Shown: positions 1 through 12,030 of the stretch, one piece after another
Layout: every line of letters begins with the position of its first letter
How positions within the stretch are numbered: the first letter of the stretch is position 1
NCBI GenBank assembly: GCA_965215015.1
Contig: OZ244042.1
Span: forward strand, 1,664,001-1,728,000
Direction: 5' to 3'
Source: Candidatus Poribacteria bacterium
GTDB taxonomy: Bacteria; Poribacteria; WGA-4E; PCPOR2b
Length of the DNA: 64,000 nt
Notes under the pieces: model-generated
The model's input: the letters and a program-made list of their open reading frames with translations, nothing else
Told to the model about the DNA's origin: nothing
The model's database searches: none
Made by a program: the position numbers and the translations under genes

Positions 1-409
1 GATAAATATATACAATCGTCTGCATCGAGAGTGAGTCAATTTGCAGACGCTGCAACAGATTGTCCAATTCTTCGTTTGCCCCTGCCCATGAAGCAATCGT
101 CTGCCAGTATTCAGGATTTGCCAACCATTTTTGGCGATGATACGGATCGTGAACAGCGCGCAGCAGGAGGAGTTCGTGGTTTCCGAGAAGCGCAACAACC
201 TGATCAGGCACCTGACATTCCAGTGTGCGAATCAAATTGATGACCTGCTTGGAATCGGGACCGCTTGTAACATAATCTCCAAGGAGAAACAGACATGCCT
301 CTCCACCGAGCCATTGATCGCTTTCATCAATTAACTGGGCATGCAGAAGCAGGTTACGAAAAGCTCGGTAGTTACCATGGATATCTGAAATAATATACCA
401 TAAACGCAT
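1..409 (-). CDS. Metallophosphoesterase, PPP/Shewanella-like phosphatase family (5' part only; runs off the window edge)
   Basis: Not in the ORF track. Manual translation from ATG 409 gives MRLWYIISDIHGNYRAF...LLGDYVTSGPDS...LLGNHEL, containing DxHG, GDxVxxG and GNHE motifs. Confidence 0.85.
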   Translation of the reverse strand, partial: MRLWYIISDIHGNYRAFRNLLLHAQLIDESDQWLGGEACLFLLGDYVTSGPDSKQVINLIRTLECQVPDQVVALLGNHELLLLRAVHDPYHRQKWLANPEYWQTIASWAGANEELDNLLQRLQIDSLSMQTIVYIY

Positions 410-656
410 AAGTAATTACACGAGGGGTGCTCCTAATAGGTTTTGATGCGTATACTTCTCAATACCTTCCATGCGTAGGGGGTGGGTCTGCCAACAACCC
501 ATCTGGCTTGGGAACCAAGCCGCTACGATTGACCTAGGTGCCCTCGCTTGAATTCAGCTATAATGTGTCTCGAATTATGCACACCCCTTCATTACACAAA
601 GTAGTCTACTCTCAAGAAATTTCTAAAGCAAATCAAGAATCGGTAGATGTGTCATT

Positions 657-2030
657 TTATTTAATATTGTGCATGTAGATATCACCGATATCGCTGCGGG
701 CATCGCTCCACACAACGCTCAATTTCCCCAGCTCAGATTCCACAACATAGGGCGGCTGCTGCACACCGTCTGCCGTGCATAGCGGAATTCCATTTTCAGT
801 CCAAAGGGTCTTTCCTTCTAAATTGATTTTCTGTCCGTAGATAGCGTCATTGCTATCATCACCGTAATCTTCCCGAAAATCTAGCCACGCAACAAAAAAA
901 TTGTTTTCGTCATACCGGGTTAGAAATGGTTTGTCCTGATACCCTCCAGCTGCACACAGGGGGATTCCGTTGAGTGTCCACCGAGGGGTGCCATCAGCAC
1001 CGATTCGTTGAGCATAAAGATCTGAAAAAATGTCCCGCTCATCTCGCCAGACAGCTACCACTCCCCCGCGCCCATCGCTCGTAATTGCAGCATTTTTTTG
1101 AATACCCTCTGCATCGCAGATCGGCACACCACTTAGCTCCCAAACCTTGCTTCCCGATGCGTCTATCCGCTGGGCGTGGAAATCATCGTTGATAAAATTC
1201 TCGTAAATCTGCCAGACGATGATAAGTCCACCTTGCCCATCGGTCACCGTACGCGGCTCGCCCTGCAATCCTTCCATCGGTGAAACAACTATTGGTGCCT
1301 GCCAGCGGTGCTTGCCGTCCATGCCTATTCGGTGCGCCATGATATCCCACTGTTCGTAACCGATGACCTCCCACCAGACGACGTAGAAGCTATCTGCATC
1401 GCCGGGTACCAGCCGGGGAGTGCTCTGAAGTGCTTCGGATGGAAATACCGGTACACCATCAAGTTCCCACATCGGTTGACCGTTCATGTTAATTCGTTGG
1501 ACATAAAGGTCGTGAAGGTCGGGGTCTCGACGCCGGTCTTTCCAAACGATAATCGCTCCGCCTGATCCATCGCTCAGAATTTCTATATCAGATTGGTCTG
1601 CCGGGTGTGTACATACGGGAACACCCCCGTTGGGTATCAGCTTATTTCCTGATAGATCAATCACTTGAGCGTAGACATCCCAATTCTCCGGGGCGCGTTG
1701 ATCTGTCCAAGCGATAATTATGAAATCCTCGTTACGCACCAGCCGTAACCATCGCTGATCCCGTTTTTTTTCGCAAATTGCTATGCCTCCTTCCGTCCAT
1801 AAAGAGATGCCATCAACGTTGAACCGTTGGGCGTAAACGTCCCAATCCTTCTCAGTGCGGAAGTCCTCCCATATGACAACTGTGCCGCCAACGCCATCGC
1901 TGACCCCCCGCGGCGCAAATTGGCCTTGAGGGGCAATCGCAATGGGGATGTTCTCTGAAGCATCGGCTAGCATAGAGCCGAACAGAAGGAGCGTGCCGAA
2001 TAACATCAACCACGAACGTATCTGTTTCAT
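657..2030 (-). CDS. Secreted repeat protein, probably a beta-propeller
   Basis: N-terminal signal peptide and about 7 repeats of ~60 aa of the form DGxGGxIIVWxDxR...DIYAQRIDxxGxxxWxxxGVPIC. Confidence 0.75.
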   Translation of the reverse strand: MKQIRSWLMLFGTLLLFGSMLADASENIPIAIAPQGQFAPRGVSDGVGGTVVIWEDFRTEKDWDVYAQRFNVDGISLWTEGGIAICEKKRDQRWLRLVRNEDFIIIAWTDQRAPENWDVYAQVIDLSGNKLIPNGGVPVCTHPADQSDIEILSDGSGGAIIVWKDRRRDPDLHDLYVQRINMNGQPMWELDGVPVFPSEALQSTPRLVPGDADSFYVVWWEVIGYEQWDIMAHRIGMDGKHRWQAPIVVSPMEGLQGEPRTVTDGQGGLIIVWQIYENFINDDFHAQRIDASGSKVWELSGVPICDAEGIQKNAAITSDGRGGVVAVWRDERDIFSDLYAQRIGADGTPRWTLNGIPLCAAGGYQDKPFLTRYDENNFFVAWLDFREDYGDDSNDAIYGQKINLEGKTLWTENGIPLCTADGVQQPPYVVESELGKLSVVWSDARSDIGDIYMHNIK

Positions 2031-2122
2031 GTTTTACTCACATCCGTATCGTGTTAAGCGCAGGCGGCGTGTGTAGCCAGGATAAACTTGAGGATTTGGA
2101 GGACCATTTCAGCAGGCACGAA

Positions 2123-2923
2123 CTATTGAGGCGAATTTGCGGTCAGGTCGTCACTTGTTATCGTCGGGCACCAGAACTTCTCAATATATGCGATAATCAA
2201 TTGCGTTCCCTCCTCGTGGCTGACATAAGGGGGCTTAAACGGATTGTACATTGCATCCGTGAGATCCCGAACCAACGCAACGTTGAACTGCCCGGATCGA
2301 ACCATCGCTTTAATCGCGAAAGATCTACCTAGCACACACATATTGGTGTGGACACCCATATAGAGCAGATTCTTGATCCCCTTTTGCATAAGGAGGTTAT
2401 AGACCTCTTGGCCATTGTCGCTGATGGCATCCCCAGCCTTAATCTCAATCGCCGAGTGTTGACGGTGCCATGCTTTGAAACTGTTTTCCTCGCCGGTATC
2501 TGAACCGCCATCCGATGAATCAACTGGCTGGGGCGGGTCTGGATGCTCGATCGGGTTGGGCATTTCTACATGTGGAACATCAAGTACCCAAGCCCGCGCG
2601 GGGTGTCCGTCGTAGAAATCCATTGTATCTGAGGGCGCGTGAATAATCTGTATCCCTCGATCTCTGGCGGTATCAATGACGACGTTCATTCGTGGTGCCA
2701 TGATATTTACTCGCTCTGTTGCACCCCATGACCAGTGTTTGTTCCACATATCCACGATAATAATCGCTGTTTCGGACAGCTGCCAGAGGGCCTCCTCTTC
2801 GACAACTCGCCAACCGTTGCGTCCGGTCGTTTTAGGTGCCTGCCGCAGGGTTGTTAATTGTAGTGCGTTATTATGGGTGAGCCCGCTTGCCCCAGATGCG
2901 ATGAGTGGAATATTGGCTATCAT
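2123..2923 (-). CDS. Isochorismatase/cysteine hydrolase family protein
   Basis: IIVDMW and GVHTNMCV motifs; AGGAGG RBS upstream of the ATG. Confidence 0.8.
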   Translation of the reverse strand: MIANIPLIASGASGLTHNNALQLTTLRQAPKTTGRNGWRVVEEEALWQLSETAIIIVDMWNKHWSWGATERVNIMAPRMNVVIDTARDRGIQIIHAPSDTMDFYDGHPARAWVLDVPHVEMPNPIEHPDPPQPVDSSDGGSDTGEENSFKAWHRQHSAIEIKAGDAISDNGQEVYNLLMQKGIKNLLYMGVHTNMCVLGRSFAIKAMVRSGQFNVALVRDLTDAMYNPFKPPYVSHEEGTQLIIAYIEKFWCPTITSDDLTANSPQ

Positions 2924-2960
2924 TGTGCAGCCTCCTTACTTCCTCGATTGCTTGTGTTTT

Positions 2961-4208
2961 TTATGAAATTTCCCTCACCATGAACGTTGCATACACCTTT
3001 GTAGTCTTAACCAGATCCGATACACTGACCCGCTCGTTCATACCGTGGGCCCCCTGTCCATTGGGCCCATAACCAACGCCGGGCAGTCCACCCTCTTCGA
3101 CGAAGAAATGCAAATCGGTAAAGCCGCTTGTCGTGCTGAACTTAGTTGGTTGATGACGTATGCTACGCACTGCTCGTGCAAATGCTTGGGGAAAGTGATG
3201 TTCTGGCTCCACAACACACGGTTCAATCTTTAATATCGAAGCCACGTCTACCTTCAATTCCGGGTCAGATTGACAGGCCTCCTGAATCGCCCCACGCAGT
3301 TCCGCTTCCGCTGCTGCCAAACGCTCGTTGGGGAGGATTCTCCGATCTATGGAGAAGGTTGTCTGGGCAGGAACGGTATTGACCTTATCCCCTTCCGTGC
3401 CGTGAAAGATACCACCGATGTTAACTGTGGGGTATCGGTCATCACCCGAAAAGGTTTTGAAAACACGGTCCGACTCTTTCAAACCCTGCTTCAAGGGTTG
3501 GATCCCCGTGACGAGAGCGGCTGACTTTTCAAAAGCGTTTAACCCCTTGTCTGGATTGGCGGCATGTGCTGCTTTGCCGTAGACTTTCACTTCTAGCCAC
3601 AATACACCGTTGTGTCCCAAACCGATGTTGAGAACGGATCCGCCTTCGCAATTGACGACGTAATCCGCTTGGACCAACCCGTTGCGTACGACGTAGCCTG
3701 CCCCTAACTCGCCACCAATCTCTTCGTCGCAGGTGAGTGAACATTCGATATTGAAAGCAGGCTGGACACCGCTTTCCTGTAGTGCTGCAACCGCAAACAG
3801 CAGCGCGGCGATGGAATCCTTCATGTCGTCTGCTCCCCTGCCGTAGAGCCAATCCCCGACAATCTCTGGCTTAAATGGATTGATGCGCCAATCGCCGGAG
3901 ACAGGCACAACATCGTAGTGGGCATTGAAATGGACGGTTTTTTCTGCCCCAACGTCCCACCTCGCGAGTAGGTTCAGGCGCGGATAATTGTCGGCGTGTG
4001 GTACAATCGCTTGCGCTTCCGCCTGAGGGACTGGCACAATCTGTGTACTCATGCCGAGCACTTCGCACCGTTCCTGAAGCAGCTGGACGATTTCTGTGTA
4101 GTTTGTACCGGGCGGATTCACAGTGGGAATCCTGACCAATTCTTTCAACGAATCACAAAGCCTTGCCTTGCCCTGTTCGATGTAGTTGTATATCTTTTGC
4201 ATAATCAC
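2961..4208 (-). CDS. M20 family metallopeptidase (ArgE/DapE-like deacylase)
   Basis: HYDVVP, GRGADDMK, DEE, and C-terminal AHGMNE metal-ligand motifs. Confidence 0.9.
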   Translation of the reverse strand: MIMQKIYNYIEQGKARLCDSLKELVRIPTVNPPGTNYTEIVQLLQERCEVLGMSTQIVPVPQAEAQAIVPHADNYPRLNLLARWDVGAEKTVHFNAHYDVVPVSGDWRINPFKPEIVGDWLYGRGADDMKDSIAALLFAVAALQESGVQPAFNIECSLTCDEEIGGELGAGYVVRNGLVQADYVVNCEGGSVLNIGLGHNGVLWLEVKVYGKAAHAANPDKGLNAFEKSAALVTGIQPLKQGLKESDRVFKTFSGDDRYPTVNIGGIFHGTEGDKVNTVPAQTTFSIDRRILPNERLAAAEAELRGAIQEACQSDPELKVDVASILKIEPCVVEPEHHFPQAFARAVRSIRHQPTKFSTTSGFTDLHFFVEEGGLPGVGYGPNGQGAHGMNERVSVSDLVKTTKVYATFMVREIS

Positions 4209-4250
4209 TTCCTTTATGGTGTTGCGGCTGGCAGACCGGAGGCTTTACTA

Positions 4251-4463
4251 ACGCAAGTTGCTAGTTGAAAAACAGGGTTAAAAATTCTCGGAATTTTCAT
4301 GGTTTTCATAGTTTTGTGAAGAATTGGATAAAGCTAAAAAAGTGGGAAACCCATGCTATGACTCGTTTCTGTGCAATTTACGCGGGAACGCTGCTTGGAC
4401 ATACTATGAAATCCAGGGCGTTCCTATCTCTGACGCCTGGCTGATTAAAGTGGCAACTTGCGT
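4251..4463. mobile_element. Non-autonomous IS982-like element (MITE or internally deleted IS)
   Basis: Inverted ends ACGCAAGTTGC (4251) and GCAACTTGCGT (4453-4463). Flanks TTTACTA and CTTACTA resemble a target duplication. The left end ACGCAAGTTGCTAGTT resembles the IS982 terminus (ACCCGAATTGCTAGTT, recalled from memory). Confidence 0.55.
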
Positions 4464-4467
4464 CTTA

Positions 4468-5685
4468 CTATTCTGTAATTTCCGTTACAACTCCCATCCC
4501 AATCTTCGCTCCCATCTTCTTAATCTCGAACCGCGTGCCGATTTCTAGTGCCATCGGTACATCAAGCGAAATTCGTACGGTTGCGTGTTCGCCCGGATTG
4601 ATAATGGCAACCTCCAACGAAAGGTGAAGATGCCCTGTGACATCGATTGTCCAGAGATGAATCTCCGGTTTATCGTTCCCAACGAGGGGGATATGTGTTC
4701 CGCACTCCTCTTGGGTCATCACGTAAACCACCGCCTCAAATTCGGTGTGTGACTTGATGCTCTTCGGTTGTGAAACAACCTGCCCCGGCGTAATCCACCC
4801 CATCTCTGCATCGACTTGGACTTCATCTCCTGCACTCTTACCCGCTTCGTTGTACTTTTCCCCTGCCGAGGAGGCAGCATCGCTATGCCGCAGACCGACG
4901 CAGCGGGTTTTGATACGATCCCCTTTGCCGACGACATCAACCGGGAGCCCGACAGCAAGACCGCCTTGTACCACCTGACCGTATAATGTTGAGGTGCCTT
5001 TGGGATTGTCAATGACCTTCTCAATTGGCATCAATAATGGCAATTCGAGTGGATTCAGCGGCTGCGGCATGCAACGATTCATTGCGAAGATAAAATCGAC
5101 AATCGGTTTCCAGTGATTTGAATTAAGATTTTGTCCCTTATAGTTAAATGCCTTTTCCCCATCGCCAATGATAATGGGCGACTCCTCAGCCACATAGCTA
5201 CAATCCGTGAGTATTTCACGAATCTCCATCTCGCAAATCTCGATTAATTCCGGATCTTTAACCTTCTCTGCCTTATTCAGAAAGGTGACAACCGTAGGGA
5301 TGCGAACTTGGCTCGCAAGCCGAATCTCGGCTTCGGCTTCTGCTGTCACACCATCAACTGCACTCACTACCAAAATTGCACCGCGAATGCCCGGCGAACC
5401 ACCAATCAGCATCTTGATGTTATCCCCGTGACTTAGTCCATCAATATGTGTGTAATGTCTACCGCTTGTTTCATAATCGACCACTTTATAACTGACGTAA
5501 GTTTGCTGTCCTATTGAATGATGCGTCGGTTGCTGTGCTTCAAAGTCACCCGCATCCATCTGCGTGGAGCCAATCCGTGAAACTACCTTGATTATCCCAG
5601 CAGTCAGCGTCGTTTTACCGTGTTCCACCCCGCCGAGTGTGCAGATTGTCAACCCGTGATGCCGATATTGCCTTTTTTCATCCAT
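4468..5685 (-). CDS. Highly divergent elongation factor Tu paralog with degenerate GTPase motifs
   Basis: Collinear with EF-Tu over three domains: HGKTTLT, YETSGRHYTHID, GAILVVSAVDG, PLLMPIE, HTEFEAVVYV, GMGVVTEI. G1 is GGVEHGKT, G3 is DGLSH, G4 is NKAE. Confidence 0.85.
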   Translation of the reverse strand: MDEKRQYRHHGLTICTLGGVEHGKTTLTAGIIKVVSRIGSTQMDAGDFEAQQPTHHSIGQQTYVSYKVVDYETSGRHYTHIDGLSHGDNIKMLIGGSPGIRGAILVVSAVDGVTAEAEAEIRLASQVRIPTVVTFLNKAEKVKDPELIEICEMEIREILTDCSYVAEESPIIIGDGEKAFNYKGQNLNSNHWKPIVDFIFAMNRCMPQPLNPLELPLLMPIEKVIDNPKGTSTLYGQVVQGGLAVGLPVDVVGKGDRIKTRCVGLRHSDAASSAGEKYNEAGKSAGDEVQVDAEMGWITPGQVVSQPKSIKSHTEFEAVVYVMTQEECGTHIPLVGNDKPEIHLWTIDVTGHLHLSLEVAIINPGEHATVRISLDVPMALEIGTRFEIKKMGAKIGMGVVTEITE

Positions 5686-6197
5686 CGCTTTCCTCTCTGA
5701 CGGAAATGTGGTAAGTCATGCGTCAAACGTAAAAAATACCCACACTGTGTCATATCATTCTTGGCTCATTGAGCCTAAACCAGTATGATACTATGCAAGT
5801 ATTCTTCAGTCCCATAGATCTGTGAACCCATTGTCTACCTACTCACTGCTCCAGCATGAAGATTGGATCGAAAGATAGCATTTCATATTTTACCATAGAG
5901 GAGAGGGTAGAGTCCATTAAAAGAAAATGGAAAGCGGCAAATCTTTAGGGATTTATCCAGATTTGTAGGGGCCAGCATGATAGTAGAGATATAGGGAGCC
6001 AGTTTTGTTCGACAACGGCCAAAGCCTCGGCACCCGGTGAGATTTTACCGGCGGCGAACCTAATAGTGTCTACCGTCCCCCCGGTTATTACAGGATTAAT
6101 CCAAATTCGACGAAAAAAATTTGAAAACTCCTAGTAGGAATTTGTGTCTATGATTATAGTATGGCTGCATTAGGAGAATTGCATCCGTTTTTTAGTT

Positions 6198-6450
6198 TGT
6201 AGTAGCGCAATTCATTGCGCGTCACAAATCACCCTACTACATACCTGAGGGTTGCTTATAATAATTGTCTGAATCGCAGATTAAACAGATGATGCAGACT
6301 GCACGCGTACAGATAGGGGCCTCAGGCGGTAGACGGAACAAGATGCCCCACCGACGGGGTTGGGAGTTTAATGGCAGTTGGGCGTTATCCAAGCCATATG
6401 CGGTAACGGTTCTGGGGTTTACGGCACGGCGGAGTGTGCCTACTACTGCC
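6198..6450. repeat. Cluster of REP-like intergenic palindromic elements
   Basis: GTAGTAGCGCAATTC (6198) has a reverse copy at ~22066. TTGTCTGAATC...(6265) matches the array-unit end. ACGGCACGGCGGAGTGTGCCTACTAC (6421) resembles 51571. Confidence 0.55.
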
Positions 6451-6730
6451 ACGGAAATACAATCTCGCACATTTCATTTTAGGGGGCGTTGTCGTTTTGG
6501 GCCTAATGCTGCTGATGATAGACTTTGAAGCACAAGCACAGATTGCCTTCGTGTCTGATAGGGATGGGAACAAGGAAATCTACGTGATGAACGCCGATGG
6601 CGCACGACAGGTACGAAGACGCACTAAAAATGGCCGTGAGAACATTAATCCTGCACGGTTTGCCCTTGCTTTTGCAGTTGAAGTTGCTCCCGCAGGTAAG
6701 ACGCTTACGATGTGGGGCTGGCTCAAATAG
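6434..6730 (+). pseudogene. Internally deleted TolB/PD40-repeat secreted protein remnant
   Basis: Signal peptide, then a single repeat [22 protein letters not shown] joined almost directly to the tail [19 protein letters not shown]; too short for a propeller. Confidence 0.6.
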
Positions 6731-6747
6731 GTCAGATGATAACTACC

Positions 6748-6806
6748 ATTATCACTGAAACTGCCCGGTGTTAAGAAAAACTTGACCGGTACGCCTCTAT
6801 TACCTA
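6748..6806 (-). mobile_element. Possible short IS982-family transposase fragment
   Basis: Peptide GNRGVPVKFFLTPGSFSD resembles the G-x-PVEFFLTPGS-x-x-D segment of IS982-type DDE transposases (recalled from memory). Confidence 0.35.
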
Positions 6807-7466
6807 TCACATCCCAAGCTTCACCGAAGCGCGTTGATTCACAATCCGATCTCGTAACCCCGCAACGAGGGTCTGCAAAGCCACAGGATTCTCATCGAGA
6901 AAAGGCACAACGAGATCGGCATACTCCTTACACGGCTCGGTGTAGACCGAGAAATTGGGGATAACATCCCGACGATACCAAGCAACCGCCCCCTCAAGAT
7001 CGCCGCCGCGCTGTGCAACATCCCGTAACAGACGGCGCAGTACCCGCTCATGCGGTTCGACGTCAATGAAGAGTTTGACATCCATCAAATCTCTAAGCAC
7101 TCCATCCCACAAGATGAGATGTCCTTCAACGATGATCAGATCACTCGGTTGAATCGTGGCGGGGGCATCACCGCGTGCGAACGCCCGCGTCCCTTCGGGT
7201 GGTGTTTCAATCGGTTGACGCGCAATCAGTTGGTGGATATGTCCAAGCAGCATCTCCCACCGAACCGCATCCGGATGATTCGCAGTGATGATTTTCTCCC
7301 GTTCTTCCTGCGGGTATTCTGACCAATCTTTGAAGTAGCAATCTTGGTGAAGAATCACCGGCGAAAATTCTTTAAGCCCTTCCGCCAATACTTGCGCTAA
7401 TGTTGTTTTCCCTGATGCTGAACCGCCCGATATCCCAACCGTCACCGGTTTGAAGTTTTGGGGCAT
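6807..7466 (-). CDS. udk: Uridine kinase family protein
   Basis: GISGGSASGKTT P-loop, HQDCYFKD, NHPDA, IIVEG, RLLRD. Start moved to ATG 7466, which has an AAGGAG RBS. Confidence 0.8.
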   Translation of the reverse strand: MPQNFKPVTVGISGGSASGKTTLAQVLAEGLKEFSPVILHQDCYFKDWSEYPQEEREKIITANHPDAVRWEMLLGHIHQLIARQPIETPPEGTRAFARGDAPATIQPSDLIIVEGHLILWDGVLRDLMDVKLFIDVEPHERVLRRLLRDVAQRGGDLEGAVAWYRRDVIPNFSVYTEPCKEYADLVVPFLDENPVALQTLVAGLRDRIVNQRASVKLGM

Positions 7467-7511
7467 GTACAACTCCTTCTCGCTAATCCAGTACGGTTGT
7501 TTCACAACTTA

Positions 7512-8408
7512 TCACGGATTATACTCCCAATTCGCTTTTCGGGTTCCGTATTTTGTTCCATTGATGACAGTCTGATGGCAGTTGAGGCAAGCGTTATAGG
7601 ATTTGACCCCATGACTCTCGTGGGCAAACTCAATCTCAGGGGTGTTGTGAACATGACAGGTGAGACAGGTATAAGCCTCGTACACAGCATCTGCATGGAC
7701 ATCTAACCGATCTCCCGCTTCCTCAACCATATATTCACCCTTGTTTTTTTTATCAGTTACCAGCCAGTGCTCCCCCTTCTCTCTCGTTGAAATCGTTGTT
7801 TGTCTAGAAAGGGAAGTCCCATGCAAATCAAATTCCCACTGCAAGTCCTCTGAAACAACCCCCCCGCTATCTAAATCGCTCTGAAAGCGCGGATCGATAC
7901 TAAACAGCAGTGCCTCCGACGTATGGCATTTCACACATGGGACATCGTGAACTTCTGTCAAAGGGAAAAATTCATCGTGATCTAATTTTTCTCTGCCGTG
8001 CAAGACAACGGTAAGCAGCAAGATTGGTGCGAGGGCAAGGTGGCAGCGGAGAAGAATGCGTCGGGCGTGGTGTGCAGTAAAACTGAGGGCAATGCCGGTC
8101 CCAAGGTTGAGTAGGGTTAGCGTAAACGCCAACCACGAGTGCCACGCAAGCGGTTGAGCCGCTGAGTGGATAAGAACAAGAGACAATCCTAACGATGCGA
8201 GCCTTTGATGGTATTTGAGCCAGACCTGTCGGCTTCCCCATCGGATTAACCGTGTCCGCAGAATATAGCCACTCGCAATGAAAATGATGAGGACACCGAT
8301 GATACTGAGCGTATGTCGCGCTTCGCCGAAGCTCGATCTGAGGATAAAGAAAAGGGATATAAGAATTGCCCCAACAACCCCTTGAGCAATTTGAACGAAT
8401 GGATTCAT
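7512..8408 (-). CDS. Membrane protein with His-bearing TM helices and a C-terminal triheme c-type cytochrome domain
   Basis: About 5 hydrophobic helices with His residues, then CVKCH, CLTCH and CLNCH heme-c motifs. Confidence 0.75.
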   Translation of the reverse strand: MNPFVQIAQGVVGAILISLFFILRSSFGEARHTLSIIGVLIIFIASGYILRTRLIRWGSRQVWLKYHQRLASLGLSLVLIHSAAQPLAWHSWLAFTLTLLNLGTGIALSFTAHHARRILLRCHLALAPILLLTVVLHGREKLDHDEFFPLTEVHDVPCVKCHTSEALLFSIDPRFQSDLDSGGVVSEDLQWEFDLHGTSLSRQTTISTREKGEHWLVTDKKNKGEYMVEEAGDRLDVHADAVYEAYTCLTCHVHNTPEIEFAHESHGVKSYNACLNCHQTVINGTKYGTRKANWEYNP

Positions 8409-8600
8409 AAGCGGAAAAATTAACAAAAAAGCTGAGTCATGTGATAGGAGTGTAGTTTTAAGAGAAGCATTCCAGGCGATAGGTGAGGCGAGTACCGATC
8501 GAACCTCGAAGCGAATGAAAAATACTCAGGGAAACCACAATTTCCAAAATTGACCCAGCTTTCGATTTTTGGAGGCAAATGTAATTATATAATATGGACG

Positions 8601-8617
8601 CGCAATCTTTGTGCCAA
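8601..8617 (-). promoter_or_regulatory. Sigma-54 (-24/-12) promoter upstream of the multiheme gene
   Basis: Minus strand TTGGCACAAAGATTGCG fits TGGCAC-N5-TTGC. Confidence 0.7.
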
Positions 8618-8699
8618 AGTTGACATCCCGCTGAAGCCTTAAATAATTAGAACACAACTTTGTTAAGATGTCAAGTGTTGTGCAAATATTTAACGGTGG

Positions 8700-8716
8700 T
8701 GTTCAGATTTTGAACA
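8700..8716. promoter_or_regulatory. Palindromic operator, putative upstream activator site
   Basis: TGTTCA-GATTT-TGAACA about 85 bp upstream of the sigma-54 site; identical copy at 22168-22184. Confidence 0.55.
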
Positions 8717-8730
8717 GCCTGAACCCGCTT

Positions 8731-10239
8731 TTATTTGACGGGGACATACTGGGCGCGACCCTCATATTTTACGAGTAGCAAGATTTTGGCTTCATCTGCT
8801 ACCTTCTCCACCGCCGATTTGAACTCCGCTACACTGCGAATAGTTTGGTTCTCGACCTCAAGGATCAGCTCTCCTTTACGGAGCCCCGCTTTGGCAGCTG
8901 CACTGCCCGGCGCAACACTAGCAATTAACACCCCTTCATCGGCAGTGTACCCCAGCTTTTCAGCCAGATCGGCTGTCAGGTGCTGAACCGAGAGCCCTTT
9001 CCAAAGATCCACATATCCTTCAGAATCTTTGCCATGTTGAACAACCTGGGCGGAACGTTTACCAAGTGTCACGGTGATATCTTGCATCTGACCCTTCCGC
9101 AGAATCGAAATTGAGACGGTGGCCGCCGGTTTATACATGGCAATTGCAGCGCGTAGATGATTGACATTCCGGATTGTTTCGTTGTTAATGGCAGCGATTA
9201 TATCACCTTTTTGTAAACCAAACTCTGCAGCGGGTGTGTCATTGAAGACGCGGGCGATCAGGGCACCCATCGGTTTGTCCAAACCCAGTTTTTCAGCCAA
9301 ACTTGAGTCAACCTCTTGAATTGAAACGCCAAGCCAACCGCGCGTGACTTGTCCGTGTTCGATTAGTTCTGTCGCAACCTGTTTGACCGTGTTGATTGGA
9401 ATAGCAAAGGCGTTGTTCGATGAGCTGCCAGCAGTCATACCGATGATTTCACCTTTTGCGCTGACAATTGCACTGCCTCCTGAACCAGGACGCAGATTCG
9501 CGTCAATCGCGATCCAGTTTTCATAATTGACGATACGCGGATTGCGTCCAACGCCGCTAATCATTCCCAAGGAAATCGCAGGTTCCTGATTTTCGGTATG
9601 TCCGAGGACAATCATCAATTCACCGAGGACAACGTCATCCGAATCACCGAATTTCGTCGTCGGAAGCCAGTCAGCATCAACTTTGAGTACAGTAATCCCT
9701 GTGCCTTTGTCAGATGCAACCACTTCAGCCTCACGGCGTTCCCCGTCCTGAAACGTGATAGTAATCTCCTCACTATCATTAACCAATTCGATAACGGTGG
9801 CGATGTGCCCTTGTTCGTCAAGCAGGATACCAGATCCGAAATTGATCTTATATTGGATCTCAGACTGGAGTATATCTTCAGGCATCACATTATGCCGCTC
9901 CCGATACGGGTCAGCAGGGTCAAGAAAATAATTTTCGGACTTTTCATCACGGTCTGAGTTTCGGCGAAACCAACGACGCAATTCTGGACCGAACCATTCC
10001 CCTTCTTCAGATTTTCCCCGGCGTTCAAAGCGGGGTGCCTGATATTTGTCTTCGTCTGATCGCTCGGCTTCGATGCCAACAACGACTTCTCCAACTTCCT
10101 GTGCGAGCACGGCAAAACTTTTGCTGAGTGCTTGCAATGTTTGTTGTTCATCTGCCGCCGATACAGCATGTTGGAGTATGCCAAAGGCGAGTACGCAAAT
10201 AAGAACGACGCTGAGTGTTTGGGGTACATTCACTTTCAT
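8731..10239 (-). CDS. HtrA/DegP-like periplasmic protein with two PDZ domains; catalytic triad absent
   Basis: Signal peptide, trypsin-like domain (GSGILLD, GDSDDV, FAIPIN, RGWLGV) and two PDZ domains. Triad regions read TVIELV, DKGTGI and PGSGGS. Confidence 0.85.
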   Translation of the reverse strand: MKVNVPQTLSVVLICVLAFGILQHAVSAADEQQTLQALSKSFAVLAQEVGEVVVGIEAERSDEDKYQAPRFERRGKSEEGEWFGPELRRWFRRNSDRDEKSENYFLDPADPYRERHNVMPEDILQSEIQYKINFGSGILLDEQGHIATVIELVNDSEEITITFQDGERREAEVVASDKGTGITVLKVDADWLPTTKFGDSDDVVLGELMIVLGHTENQEPAISLGMISGVGRNPRIVNYENWIAIDANLRPGSGGSAIVSAKGEIIGMTAGSSSNNAFAIPINTVKQVATELIEHGQVTRGWLGVSIQEVDSSLAEKLGLDKPMGALIARVFNDTPAAEFGLQKGDIIAAINNETIRNVNHLRAAIAMYKPAATVSISILRKGQMQDITVTLGKRSAQVVQHGKDSEGYVDLWKGLSVQHLTADLAEKLGYTADEGVLIASVAPGSAAAKAGLRKGELILEVENQTIRSVAEFKSAVEKVADEAKILLLVKYEGRAQYVPVK

Positions 10240-10442
10240 TTTTTTTTTACCTCTCTTACGGTTTGAAGGGTAACACACTGTCCAAATCGGTAAGTTTCAT
10301 CAAAAACGGCTATATCATTCAGATCATATTGAAAATTGAGGAGATGATAGGGTATACTCTTACACAAGATCTATGAACAGATTTCTGAAGCATCTGCATG
10401 ATGCTTGCCTGTTTGGTGGTAAAATTGAAAGGAGGGTTTACC

Positions 10443-11249
10443 ATGTGTTGGGAAAAAAATTCTCAAAGGCGATGGAGCCTCGCCGTGATAACTATTGTAG
10501 CGAGTGTCCTTATCCTACCAAGTTTGACTCAAGCACAGAAAATCTTGTTTGAAGATAATTTTGATAAGTCGAAAGACAAGTTGAACGGCACGGGAAAATG
10601 GCACGCGGTCTCTGGGGCGTGGATAATTAAAAATGGCAAATTGGTACAGAACCAACGAAACGGTAAAAATCTTATCTTAGTATCTGATAGTCATTGGGAT
10701 GAAGAGTGGAAGGACTATTGGTTCTATTCAACGATTCATCTTGCAGCCGGTGAAAGCCCACTCCTCGTTTGGCGATTCCACAGTGATGAAGGTGCGGGTT
10801 TTGCTGGTAAGGAGGCTTTGCCACCCCGGATGCAACAGAGCTTGCGCCGCCATGTCATTTATTGGGCACTGAACAGGGAGGGGAAAAGGTCTGTCGTGCA
10901 TCGGCATATACGACATATCACGAAAGAGTTTGAAAAAACCGAGACAAAAACAAAACTTGATAGAGGCGTAGACTACTGGATCAAAATCGAGAATCACCCG
11001 AAAGGCTACCGTTTTTTCCTCACTGATAACGGCGCAGCAGCAGCCTTGGGTAATTACGGTCCAGCCCTTGTTGATGTTAAAGATGTCAACATGCAGGGGG
11101 AGGGGCGAATCGGTTTTGGGACTCAAGAGGCCATAATTGAGGTAGATAACGTGTTTGTCACTGAACCTGAAAAGAATCCTTTTGCCGTAGAAGCGCAGGG
11201 TAAGTTGGCAACCACGTGGGGGAGGCTGAAATCAAAGGTGGTCCAATAG
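10443..11249 (+). CDS. Secreted beta-sandwich (DUF1080/LamG-like) protein with a Poribacteria-type C-terminal motif
   Basis: GGAGGG RBS, signal peptide, ILFEDNFD, GRIGF...VDNVFV, tail AVEAQGKLATTWGRLK. Confidence 0.65.
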   Translation: MCWEKNSQRRWSLAVITIVASVLILPSLTQAQKILFEDNFDKSKDKLNGTGKWHAVSGAWIIKNGKLVQNQRNGKNLILVSDSHWDEEWKDYWFYSTIHLAAGESPLLVWRFHSDEGAGFAGKEALPPRMQQSLRRHVIYWALNREGKRSVVHRHIRHITKEFEKTETKTKLDRGVDYWIKIENHPKGYRFFLTDNGAAAALGNYGPALVDVKDVNMQGEGRIGFGTQEAIIEVDNVFVTEPEKNPFAVEAQGKLATTWGRLKSKVVQ

Positions 11250-11271
11250 GATTGCAAAGGGGATAGAACGA

Positions 11272-12030
11272 ATGAAGGTTGTGGTATTCGGCGCAGCCGG
11301 GTGGGCAGGCAGAGCTGTACTTGCCAATTTGACGGGCAAACATCAGGTCCGCGCCTTTGATCGGGGACCGGAAGCATGGGAGGAGTGGAGGGATATTGAT
11401 GGCGAATGGCAGGGCGGAGAGATTATCCACGGGGATATTGTGGACTTCTCCGCTGTGCACAACGCCACCCAAGGGATGGATGCTGTTATTCATCTCGCAG
11501 TCTATTTCGGGGGATACGGCGTAGATGATGCGCAGCCGTTCTTAATCAATTTGAAGGGTTTGTGGAATCTCCTAGAATCCACACAGCAACGTGGTATTGA
11601 GCGGGTGGTGCACATCGGGTCATGCCAGACGGAGCACCCCAAAGGGATATTTTTTAACGCGGATGTCAGGAGACCCGATGGAAGCCAGTACGCCGTTTGC
11701 AAGCGTTTGCAGGAAGAGATGTGCCGGCAGTTTTATGATGCCTACGGGTCACGCATTATTGTCCTGCGTCCGGATTATATTGTAGATAGTCGATTGGGAA
11801 TCAACAGGCGTCGAGAGAAACTAGGCTCCAAGGAGGCACCGGTGCGGAATGGGTGCGTGTGTCGGCATGATCTGGCGGAGGCATGTCGTCTGGGGATAGA
11901 GTCCGCAGCAATTGACTTCGATATCTTTCATATTGTGGGCACCCCCGAAGCGGATAACACCTGCAATGTGGAGCGGTCACGTCGCGTGCTAGGGTTGGAG
12001 TACCGGGGGAACCTGGAGCAGTATCGGTGA
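11272..12030 (+). CDS. NAD-dependent epimerase/dehydratase (extended SDR)
   Basis: GAAGWAG Rossmann motif, DAVIHLA, YAVCK (YxxxK). Confidence 0.85.
   Translation: MKVVVFGAAGWAGRAVLANLTGKHQVRAFDRGPEAWEEWRDIDGEWQGGEIIHGDIVDFSAVHNATQGMDAVIHLAVYFGGYGVDDAQPFLINLKGLWNLLESTQQRGIERVVHIGSCQTEHPKGIFFNADVRRPDGSQYAVCKRLQEEMCRQFYDAYGSRIIVLRPDYIVDSRLGINRRREKLGSKEAPVRNGCVCRHDLAEACRLGIESAAIDFDIFHIVGTPEADNTCNVERSRRVLGLEYRGNLEQYR

Follow-up and report, generated by a model that had tools for sequence, protein, structure and literature searches.

A divergent EF-Tu paralog of Candidatus Poribacteria: a putative pseudo-GTPase with a conserved three-domain fold and degenerate GTPase motifs

Few proteins are as conserved or as well studied as elongation factor Tu (EF-Tu), and gene conversion normally keeps its bacterial duplicates identical. 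A stretch of 64,000 nucleotides from a Candidatus Poribacteria genome (GenBank assembly GCA_965215015.1, contig OZ244042.1, positions 1,664,001 to 1,728,000 of the forward strand; hereafter the window, whose own numbering is used below) contains a divergent paralog of this factor. The coding sequence runs from 5685 to 4468 on the minus strand (window 4468..5685) and specifies 405 amino acids and a stop codon. It begins with an ATG at 5685-5683, and in the alignment this start methionine occupies a position common to the orthologs. An initial annotation, which was made from the letters of the DNA, had reported here an intact 405-residue EF-Tu-like reading frame with rewired or dead GTPase motifs. 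The frame was confirmed and could be assigned to the minus strand, which that annotation had not given; the plus-strand frame of the same interval is full of stops.

The domain make-up of the paralog is that of EF-Tu. Pfam searches identified GTP_EFTU at residues 13-183 (82.7 bits) and GTP_EFTU_D3 at residues 309-403 (67 bits). The Pfam model for domain II gave no match at E<=0.1, and the beta-barrel of this domain is still visible in the AlphaFold2 model of the protein. Residues 11-405 could be aligned end to end with EF-Tu, the best match being PDB 6gfu (E 5.8e-75), while identity to the tuf product of the same genome is 34%. On the NCBIfam EF-Tu models (TIGR00485 and the PRK subfamily) the paralog scored 260-272 bits and did not reach the cut-offs of 449-522 bits (260 vs 522 for the TIGR00485 equivalog). 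None of the curated translational GTPase models reached its own cut-off on this protein. SelB shares with it an EF-Tu-like G domain and domains II and III, but the selB model (TIGR00475) gave 52 bits vs a cut-off of 242 and covered the G domain only. Moreover, the paralog, with 405 amino acids vs 640 for SelB, ends with domain III and lacks the C-terminal winged-helix extension that binds SECIS elements, and a true SelB (371 bits vs the same cut-off) is encoded elsewhere in the genome, in agreement with the earlier statement that the gene is not selB.

The source genome consists of one contig of 5.94 Mb, in which exactly one match exceeds the EF-Tu cut-off (729 bits, C1:5843579-5844775). By reading of the translated open reading frames (ORFs), this canonical tuf is flanked by EF-G (fusA) upstream and by S10, L3 and L4 downstream, and its product (P0122) has every canonical motif. 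LepA and a single short EF-Ts of 198 amino acids are also present.

All six motif changes listed by the initial annotation were found in the sequence and in the alignment. Their conservation was counted in 60 family members in E. coli numbering, with the E. coli tufA sequence as reference; the features named below with their own residue numbers and coordinates are all on the minus strand. The G1 motif, or P-loop, reads GGVEHGKT instead of GHVDHGKT (residues 18-25, 5611..5634) and is altered, but its Walker A pattern GxxxxGKT is intact, with G18, G23 and T25 each in 60/60 members and K24 in 59/60. On this point the initial annotation needs correcting, since G1 is not dead. In the remodelled switch I (residues 51-67, 5485..5535), QQTYVSY stands at residues 60-66 in place of the canonical RGITINT, and no equivalent of Thr61 exists, Thr occurring at this position in 0/60 members. 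A new pattern, Q-x-P-x-H-H ... [ST]-Y-[RK], is conserved instead. Q51 (55/60), P53 (58/60), H55, H56 (54/60) and Y66 (59/60) are retained in 47-59 of the 60 members, and switch I has been rebuilt and has not decayed.

The remaining motifs have been altered to different degrees. G3, or switch II, is DGLSH instead of DCPGH (residues 82-86, 5428..5442), in which the Asp is kept (D80, 60/60) and the Gly of DxxG is lost (G83, 0/60), with H84 present in 49/60. In G4, NKAE instead of NKAD (residues 137-140, 5266..5277), Asn alone is conserved: N135 was found in 60/60 members, K136 in 19/60 and D138 in 6/60, and no new conserved residue replaces the lost Lys and Asp in these members. The initial annotation had considered a changed nucleotide specificity, which the absence of a conserved G4 replacement and the existence of a sublineage without a P-loop (see below) make doubtful. 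In G5, GDGE replaces GSAL (residues 174-177, 5155..5166), Ser173 having become a conserved Asp (58/60) next to a largely kept A174 (56/60). In domain II, PKGTST occupies residues 228-233 in place of the GRGTV loop.

Most of the positions taken to contact tRNA in EF-Tu are also changed or deleted across the 60 members. The changes include H66 to A/S/V, E215 to R/Y/H, F218 to V/I/T, T228 to R/Y, R288 to V/P, R318 to T and Q329 to E/D; in domain III, R333 has become W and E378 has become K in 60/60 members each, and the neighbouring G379 has become M in 59/60. Of the 60 members, 41-55 have lost the segment corresponding to E. coli 260-273, and in the genus of the window a low-complexity insert stands there (domain II loop, 21 residues, 267-287, 4825..4887). 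This insert is probably disordered, with a predicted local distance difference test score (pLDDT) below 50 at 269-284. In another genome (G020, locus L053), the same loop carries a Pro-, Ser- and Gly-rich insert of about 60 residues. The loop is tolerant of insertions.

On the other hand, several segments are conserved within the family and differ from EF-Tu, namely those corresponding to E. coli 180-199, 230-252 (domain II), and 320-335 and 370-379 (domain III). The first of them lies at the end of the G domain (YKG...HWKPIVDFIFAMNRCMPQP, residues 182-209, 5059..5142), where 13 of the 20 positions of E. coli 180-199 are conserved in the family and differ from the canonical residues; it also occurs in P0123, a form of the f6 type (see below), and in the forms that lack a P-loop. 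Domain III (residues 309-405, 4471..4761) carries the paralog-specific motifs THIPLVGNDKPEIHLW and FEIKKMG.

The paralog is widely conserved within one part of the phylum. A clear ortholog was found in 38 of 41 related genomes, with 87-91% identity in the genus and 40-77% in other genera or families, and each of the same 41 genomes has a canonical tuf with 33-37% identity to the query. Among 176 genomes labelled Candidatus Poribacteria, 155 gave a match stronger than any canonical tuf match (paralog matches at E<=2.3e-79, best tuf match at 8.4e-74). These comprise 153 of the 159 genomes of the window's order, which contains four families, and the single genomes of two further families (f6 and f7). 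Within the order, three genomes gave tuf-level matches only (G021, G069 and G116, with completeness of 94, 85 and 86%), and the remaining exceptions are three genomes of genus g11, which carry a much more divergent form. Tuf-level matches or none were obtained in families f8-f11 (12 genomes), and no match at E<=1e-40 was obtained in family f5 (3 genomes). The family is narrow: among 1.84 billion cluster representatives, P0124, the best canonical-like EF-Tu of that library (227 bits), is exceeded by two only, namely the cluster of the query itself (804 bits) and P0123 (312 bits, 41% identity).

Purifying selection acts strongly on all three domains. The median ratio of nonsynonymous to synonymous substitution rates (dN/dS, or omega; Nei-Gojobori, 36 pairs from nine genomes of the genus) was 0.081, with values between 0.058 and 0.113, compared with 0.055 for tuf in the same nine genomes. 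By region, omega was 0.069 in the G domain, 0.056 in domain II, 0.088 in domain III, 0.116 in switch I and 0.286 in the disordered insert. Across the order, the paralog diverges 2-3 times faster than tuf (dN of 0.38-0.46 vs 0.13-0.15 to the most distant families). No stops were found inside the listed paralog matches of the 41 related and the 176 phylum genomes.

A quick IQ-TREE analysis of 76 rows (LG+C20) placed 17 paralogs in one clade with a support of 100 by the SH-aLRT branch test, and P0123 attaches across a branch that also has a support of 100. None of the 41 other representatives in the tree groups with the family. Within the clade, the paralogs form the groups f2, f4 and f1+f3. Because this grouping resembles that of the tuf clade, the sequences fit vertical inheritance of the paralog in one lineage of the phylum. 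The phylum's tuf sequences form their own clade (support 97); therefore, the duplication predates the split of the four families. An approximately unbiased (AU) test was performed on a reduced set of 24 rows, from which 52 rows (motif-degenerate representatives and near-duplicate genomes) had been dropped. A tree with the paralogs and the phylum's tuf as one clade was not rejected (p 0.672), and its log-likelihood even exceeded that of the quick free search by 4.46 units. This result is compatible with a duplication within the lineage but does not show it, and the origin of the paralog is uncertain owing to the long branches. The initial annotation had named three findings that would tell against its proposal: a lack of conserved orthologs, a dN/dS near 1, and grouping with a characterised translational GTPase subfamily. 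Given orthologs across an order and two further families, a dN/dS of 0.08 within the genus and a separate clade without any model cut-off reached, all three points come out in its favour, and its description of a degenerate GTPase switch in a conserved, functional paralog agrees with the motif counts and the selection data.

The loss of GTPase motifs was stepwise. In the f6-type forms (P0123, G047), which represent a sister lineage, GH.GHGKT, NKID and GSAR/GSAQ are kept, G3 is DCVNH, and both RGITI and the DxxG Gly are absent; these forms scored 331-342 bits on the EF-Tu models, between tuf and the query. In the order with four families, NKxD and SAL are lost in addition. In two f4 genera, g11 and g12 (G033 = L051, G039 = L052, G036 = L029), a deletion of three residues removes GK[ST] of the P-loop, and in G039 Asp80 is lost as well. 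The g11/g12 forms are nested within the f4 paralogs on a long branch and still retain YETSG, WQPI, VDI.G.GDRIRT.C, AEPGW and FE..KM. Omega between G033 and G039 was 0.134, at a dS of about 1.6, which is near saturation. With the P-loop gone and the rest of the protein conserved, classical nucleotide binding would therefore be dispensable for the selected role in the g11/g12 lineage. Read from their sequences, the living forms appear to make up a graded series in which the guanine site is first kept, then lost, and finally accompanied by deletion of the P-loop.

Structure prediction was carried out with AlphaFold2 for the paralog (61-sequence family alignment) and, by the same pipeline, for the genome's tuf product as a control (17-sequence alignment). 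The paralog model (pLDDT 88.4; predicted template modelling score, pTM, 0.85) shows the three-domain fold of EF-Tu, with a G domain and two beta-barrels, its switch regions are confident, and switch I is predicted as a beta-hairpin. In Foldseek comparisons, this model reached template modelling (TM) scores of 0.80-0.88 with EF-Tu structures whose titles name GDP (6mij, 1tui, 1d8t, 7vok, 8rdw), and of 0.50 and 0.47 with the closed forms 4lby and 1ha3. In the tuf control (pLDDT 82.5, pTM 0.69), pLDDT fell below 50 in both switch I (46-67) and switch II (87-94), and this model gave TM scores of 0.79-0.94 with closed GTP-form structures, most of them 0.88-0.94, compared with 0.47-0.55 for GDP forms; with the GTP-analogue and ternary structures 1exm, 1eft, 1ttt, 1ob2 and 4v5l the scores were 0.90-0.94. 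The contrast between an open and a closed model fits a paralog that is fixed in the open arrangement. In addition, a complex of the paralog with EF-Ts was predicted with two alignments and scored 0.30 vs a mark of 0.32, which speaks neither for nor against binding.

The surroundings of the gene were also examined. According to Pfam, its neighbours encode an M20 peptidase, an isochorismatase-like protein, a protein of the uridine-kinase family and an HtrA-like protease, with no ribosomal genes among them; together with the absence of tRNA genes from the 64-kb window, this places the gene outside any ribosomal-protein or tRNA operon, as the initial annotation had stated. The M20 peptidase gene lies downstream on the same strand, a pairing that was also observed at L030, the only other locus of genus g1 examined, and in none of the other genera examined. 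Neighbours at the related loci (peptidase, isochorismatase, kinase, NamZ, DUF3500, his genes and accA) show no translation theme in Pfam. In family f2 and genus g5, genes of the His_biosynth family or for histidinol dehydrogenase are arranged tail-to-tail with the paralog (L023 7287-7994, L020 6958-8262), and this adjacency may have been left over from an earlier common location. A tRNA gene was found at one of 16 related loci scanned, a tRNA-Arg(CCG) about 170 nucleotides upstream on the opposite strand (L024 of G027, 7854-7931). At the matching place in G030, a degraded tRNA-like stretch was noticed by eye. Rfam models gave no match at E<=1 in window positions 1-12000. The PADLOC-DB defence models matched the paralog in 0 families at E<=0.01, and no defence genes were found beside it among the neighbours examined. 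Two further ORFs near the gene were noted. One (6434-6730, plus strand, 98 amino acids) has a hydrophobic N-terminal stretch and a segment resembling a TolB/PD40-type repeat, with no Pfam match at E<=0.001; the other (657-2030, minus strand, 457 amino acids) has a signal-like N-terminus and about eight repeats ending in ...DWDVYAQR.(N)..G, with no Pfam match.

Upstream of the gene, a consensus scan identified a sigma-70-like promoter with an extended -10 element at 5887..5916 on the minus strand (TGGACT, 18 nucleotides, TG-n-TAAAAT), and this block is nearly invariant across all 12 aligned genus members. It is followed by a leader (5686..5886, minus strand) with a conserved 5' part of about 60 nucleotides and a Shine-Dalgarno-like AGAGAGGA at 5698-5691, 5 nucleotides upstream of the ATG. 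Neither the block nor the leader is conserved in other families, where, by reading, the genes have TGn-extended -10 boxes of their own. A short GC hairpin and a U-run precede the gene in most of the 12 genus members and are missing in two, and the leader of the source genome contains an extra insert of about 65 nucleotides. An upstream ORF of 12 codons in the leader was considered and rejected; it is not conserved, its ATG being ATA in 2 of the 12 members and its stop being lost in one. Codon adaptation, which placed the paralog at the 75th and the genome's tuf at the 56th percentile of 234 background ORFs, is uninformative as a proxy for expression.

With a GTPase fold, loss of the residues for hydrolysis and switching, and retention under selection, as given by the motif counts and omega, the paralog has the features of a pseudo-GTPase. 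We consider it fairly probable that it is an EF-Tu-derived pseudo-GTPase that neither switches nor carries aminoacyl-tRNA (aa-tRNA), and that it serves as a static module acting via new surfaces, with nucleotide in at most a structural role. Its role probably differs from that of EF-Tu and would not require switching. The gamma-phosphate sensors (the Thr of switch I and the Gly of DxxG), the residues for guanine specificity and most of the tRNA positions have been lost, with the site for phosphate and Mg kept in most members. In the proposed scheme, the protein would neither cycle between GTP and GDP shapes nor deliver aa-tRNA, and the rebuilt switch I hairpin would hold it in one open, GDP-like shape. 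Binding might be static and involve the end of the G domain, domain II (VGKGDRIKTRC, AEPGW) and domain III (THIPLVGNDKPEIHLW, FEIKKMG), and any bound nucleotide might have a structural role.

Several observations weigh against this reading. The P-loop, Asp80 and Asn135 are kept throughout the 60-member sample and His84 in 49/60, and because of this conservation, nucleotide binding or even slow hydrolysis could still matter in most lineages. In P0013, a cluster representative from the same genus with 91% identity, G3 is DGLGH, with a Gly at the DxxG position. The open conformation is an AlphaFold2 prediction throughout, and the aminoacyl, CCA-end, 5'-phosphate and T-stem contacts are those that we take, following the literature on the EF-Tu ternary complex, to be the relevant positions. 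Helix D, which in EF-Tu is a contact for EF-Ts and L7/L12, is fairly well kept in the paralogs, and some canonical interactions may survive through it. No binding partner for the paralog was identified, and ORF clustering of 12 loci revealed synteny inside families and nothing common to all four, so that the gene context gives no functional hint, the neighbourhoods differing between families. As a separate matter, a Balon- or aeRF1-like partner was considered and dropped as unsupported, the genome having yielded no match to baeRF_family2 (PF18844) or eRF1_3 (PF03465), with the other baeRF families not searched.

Several other explanations need to be weighed against the same data. The initial annotation had suggested a specialised tRNA-binding role, and the paralog might carry one unusual tRNA or tRNA-like molecule, possibly powered by some nucleotide that is not GTP, in the manner of SelB or the nematode mitochondrial EF-Tu paralogs. 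Passages of Atkinson 2015 (PMC4342817) describe EF-Tu duplicates that are specialised for odd tRNAs. The full three-domain architecture with domain III and, in most members, the P-loop are retained, and the E378 to K change adds positive charge at EF-Tu's T-stem contact. However, the aminoacyl pocket is changed at H66, E215, F218 and T228, the 260-273 segment is mostly deleted, and the replacements at R288, R318, R333 and Q329 strip basic or polar contacts. The near absence of tRNA genes from the window and the related loci, the lack of a conserved replacement in G4 and of the P-loop in g11/g12, and the open form of the model also argue against such a carrier. The open form of EF-Tu is a poor binder of aa-tRNA. 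On balance, a tRNA carrier is improbable. A role as a working nucleotide hydrolase with non-canonical residues (such as the His-His of switch I and Asp175) and a cycle of its own would account for the invariance of GxxxxGKT, Asp80 and Asn135, the frequent His84, the new conserved residues H55, H56 and Y66 in switch I and D175 in G5, the low omega of the G domain, and the NKxD and SA of the f6-type forms. It is unlikely, however, given that the P-loop has been deleted in g11/g12 while the remaining protein is conserved, that G4 is variable, and that the switch regions are modelled as rigid, unlike those of the tuf control.

A decoy or sponge for toxins, phage proteins or antibiotics that target EF-Tu, which would shield the tuf product in a dense sponge microbiome, is another idea that we regard as having little probability. 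The paralog is predicted to be EF-Tu-shaped and, by its motifs, translationally inert, and solved structures contain toxins and other proteins bound to EF-Tu (Tse6-EF-Tu, 4zv4; EF-Tu/CdiA/CdiI, 7vmc; according to the entry titles). But surfaces with 34% identity to canonical EF-Tu are a poor fit with target mimicry, the long vertical inheritance at low omega gives no sign of an arms race, and neither PADLOC hits nor adjoining defence genes were found. Finally, a decaying, functionless duplicate of tuf might be suspected from the lost canonical motifs and from scores under all curated cut-offs, but this is scarcely credible when none of the genomes examined has a broken frame, omega is 0.08, and the family has conserved motifs of its own and, in the genus, a conserved promoter.

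Compared with canonical EF-Tu (TIGR00485; PDB 1efc, 1tui, 1ttt), the putative pseudo-GTPase retains the fold, the P-loop, Asp80, Asn135, much of helix D and the core of domain III, but it lacks the switch I Thr, the DxxG Gly, the Lys and Asp of NKxD and the Ser of G5, its tRNA contacts are altered, it lies outside the str operon, and it is modelled open where the genome's tuf is modelled closed. Ski7 is a pseudo-GTPase among the paralogs of EF1A. Passages of Atkinson 2015 (PMC4342817) describe Ski7, Hbs1 and eRF3 as paralogs of the EF1A family whose ligands are proteins and not tRNA, the actinomycete EF-Tu duplicates as condition-specific translation factors associated with antibiotic resistance, and, among EF-Tu-like subfamilies, actEF-Tu alone as clearly distinct from EF-Tu. 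Like actEF-Tu and Streptomyces EF-Tu3, the Poribacteria paralog is a lineage-restricted, divergent second EF-Tu that has escaped gene conversion with tuf; the actinomycete proteins, however, are working elongation factors from another phylum, whereas the Poribacteria family has lost the residues of the switch and the tRNA pocket and stands as a clade of its own in a tree that contained no actEF-Tu sequence. With Ski7, Hbs1 and eRF3 it would share, by analogy, the reuse of a duplicated aa-tRNA carrier for partner binding with the GTPase reduced or lost, although these proteins are eukaryotic, carry additional N-terminal regions and have partners that are known (eRF1, Dom34 and the exosome/Ski complex). 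They may be viewed as the nearest functional analogy, which does not imply membership of the same group.

Similar proteins exist outside the phylum. Among the best 150 representatives, 44 are full-length (385-412 amino acids), a few of them visibly truncated or frameshifted, and under a strict pattern RG[IM]T is absent from 37 of the 44 and D.PGH from 29. They include proteins of about 390-405 amino acids with a degenerate switch I and DxxGH (DPPSH, DFPEH and DCPSH being examples at G3), annotated as 'GTP-binding protein' in Myxococcus spp. and Rhizobium mongolense and as 'elongation factor Tu' in a Deltaproteobacteria metagenome-assembled genome. In these proteins (P0193, P0183, P0155 and about 30 more), NKxD and GSAL are mostly kept, in contrast to the Poribacteria family. 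Since they do not group with that family in the tree, they may be independent derivations, and switch-dead paralogs derived from EF-Tu seem to have arisen several times. Literature searches returned no paper describing the Poribacteria family, although the per-genome supplements of Atkinson 2015 might list such sequences, and no characterisation of the Myxococcus and Rhizobium proteins was found, no search having been made by their names.

A broader proposal, which we put forward tentatively and hold to be possible but rather doubtful, is that the family is the first bacterial counterpart of the route taken by eRF3, Hbs1 and Ski7. In this proposal, an EF-Tu duplicate would have become a nucleotide-independent protein adaptor, frozen in the open form and acting via rebuilt domains II and III, with a graded series of forms still surviving, and it would be one of a wider, unrecognised class that arose independently in Myxococcus, Rhizobium and many uncultured lineages.

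In practical terms, source records name these proteins 'elongation factor Tu', 'GTP-binding protein' or 'hypothetical protein [Candidatus Poribacteria bacterium]', and the automated label 'elongation factor Tu' on some of them needs correcting. The family may also serve as a lineage marker for the sponge-associated, uncultured Poribacteria. Beside actEF-Tu, it represents a second, phylum-restricted EF-Tu-like family, maintained under strong selection in about 155 genomes, and its three stages of motif loss provide a natural series for examining the contribution of the individual G motifs to a function without switching. If the paralog is indeed a pseudo-GTPase, the EF-Tu scaffold would be reusable for another purpose in bacteria, as that of EF1A is in eukaryotes.

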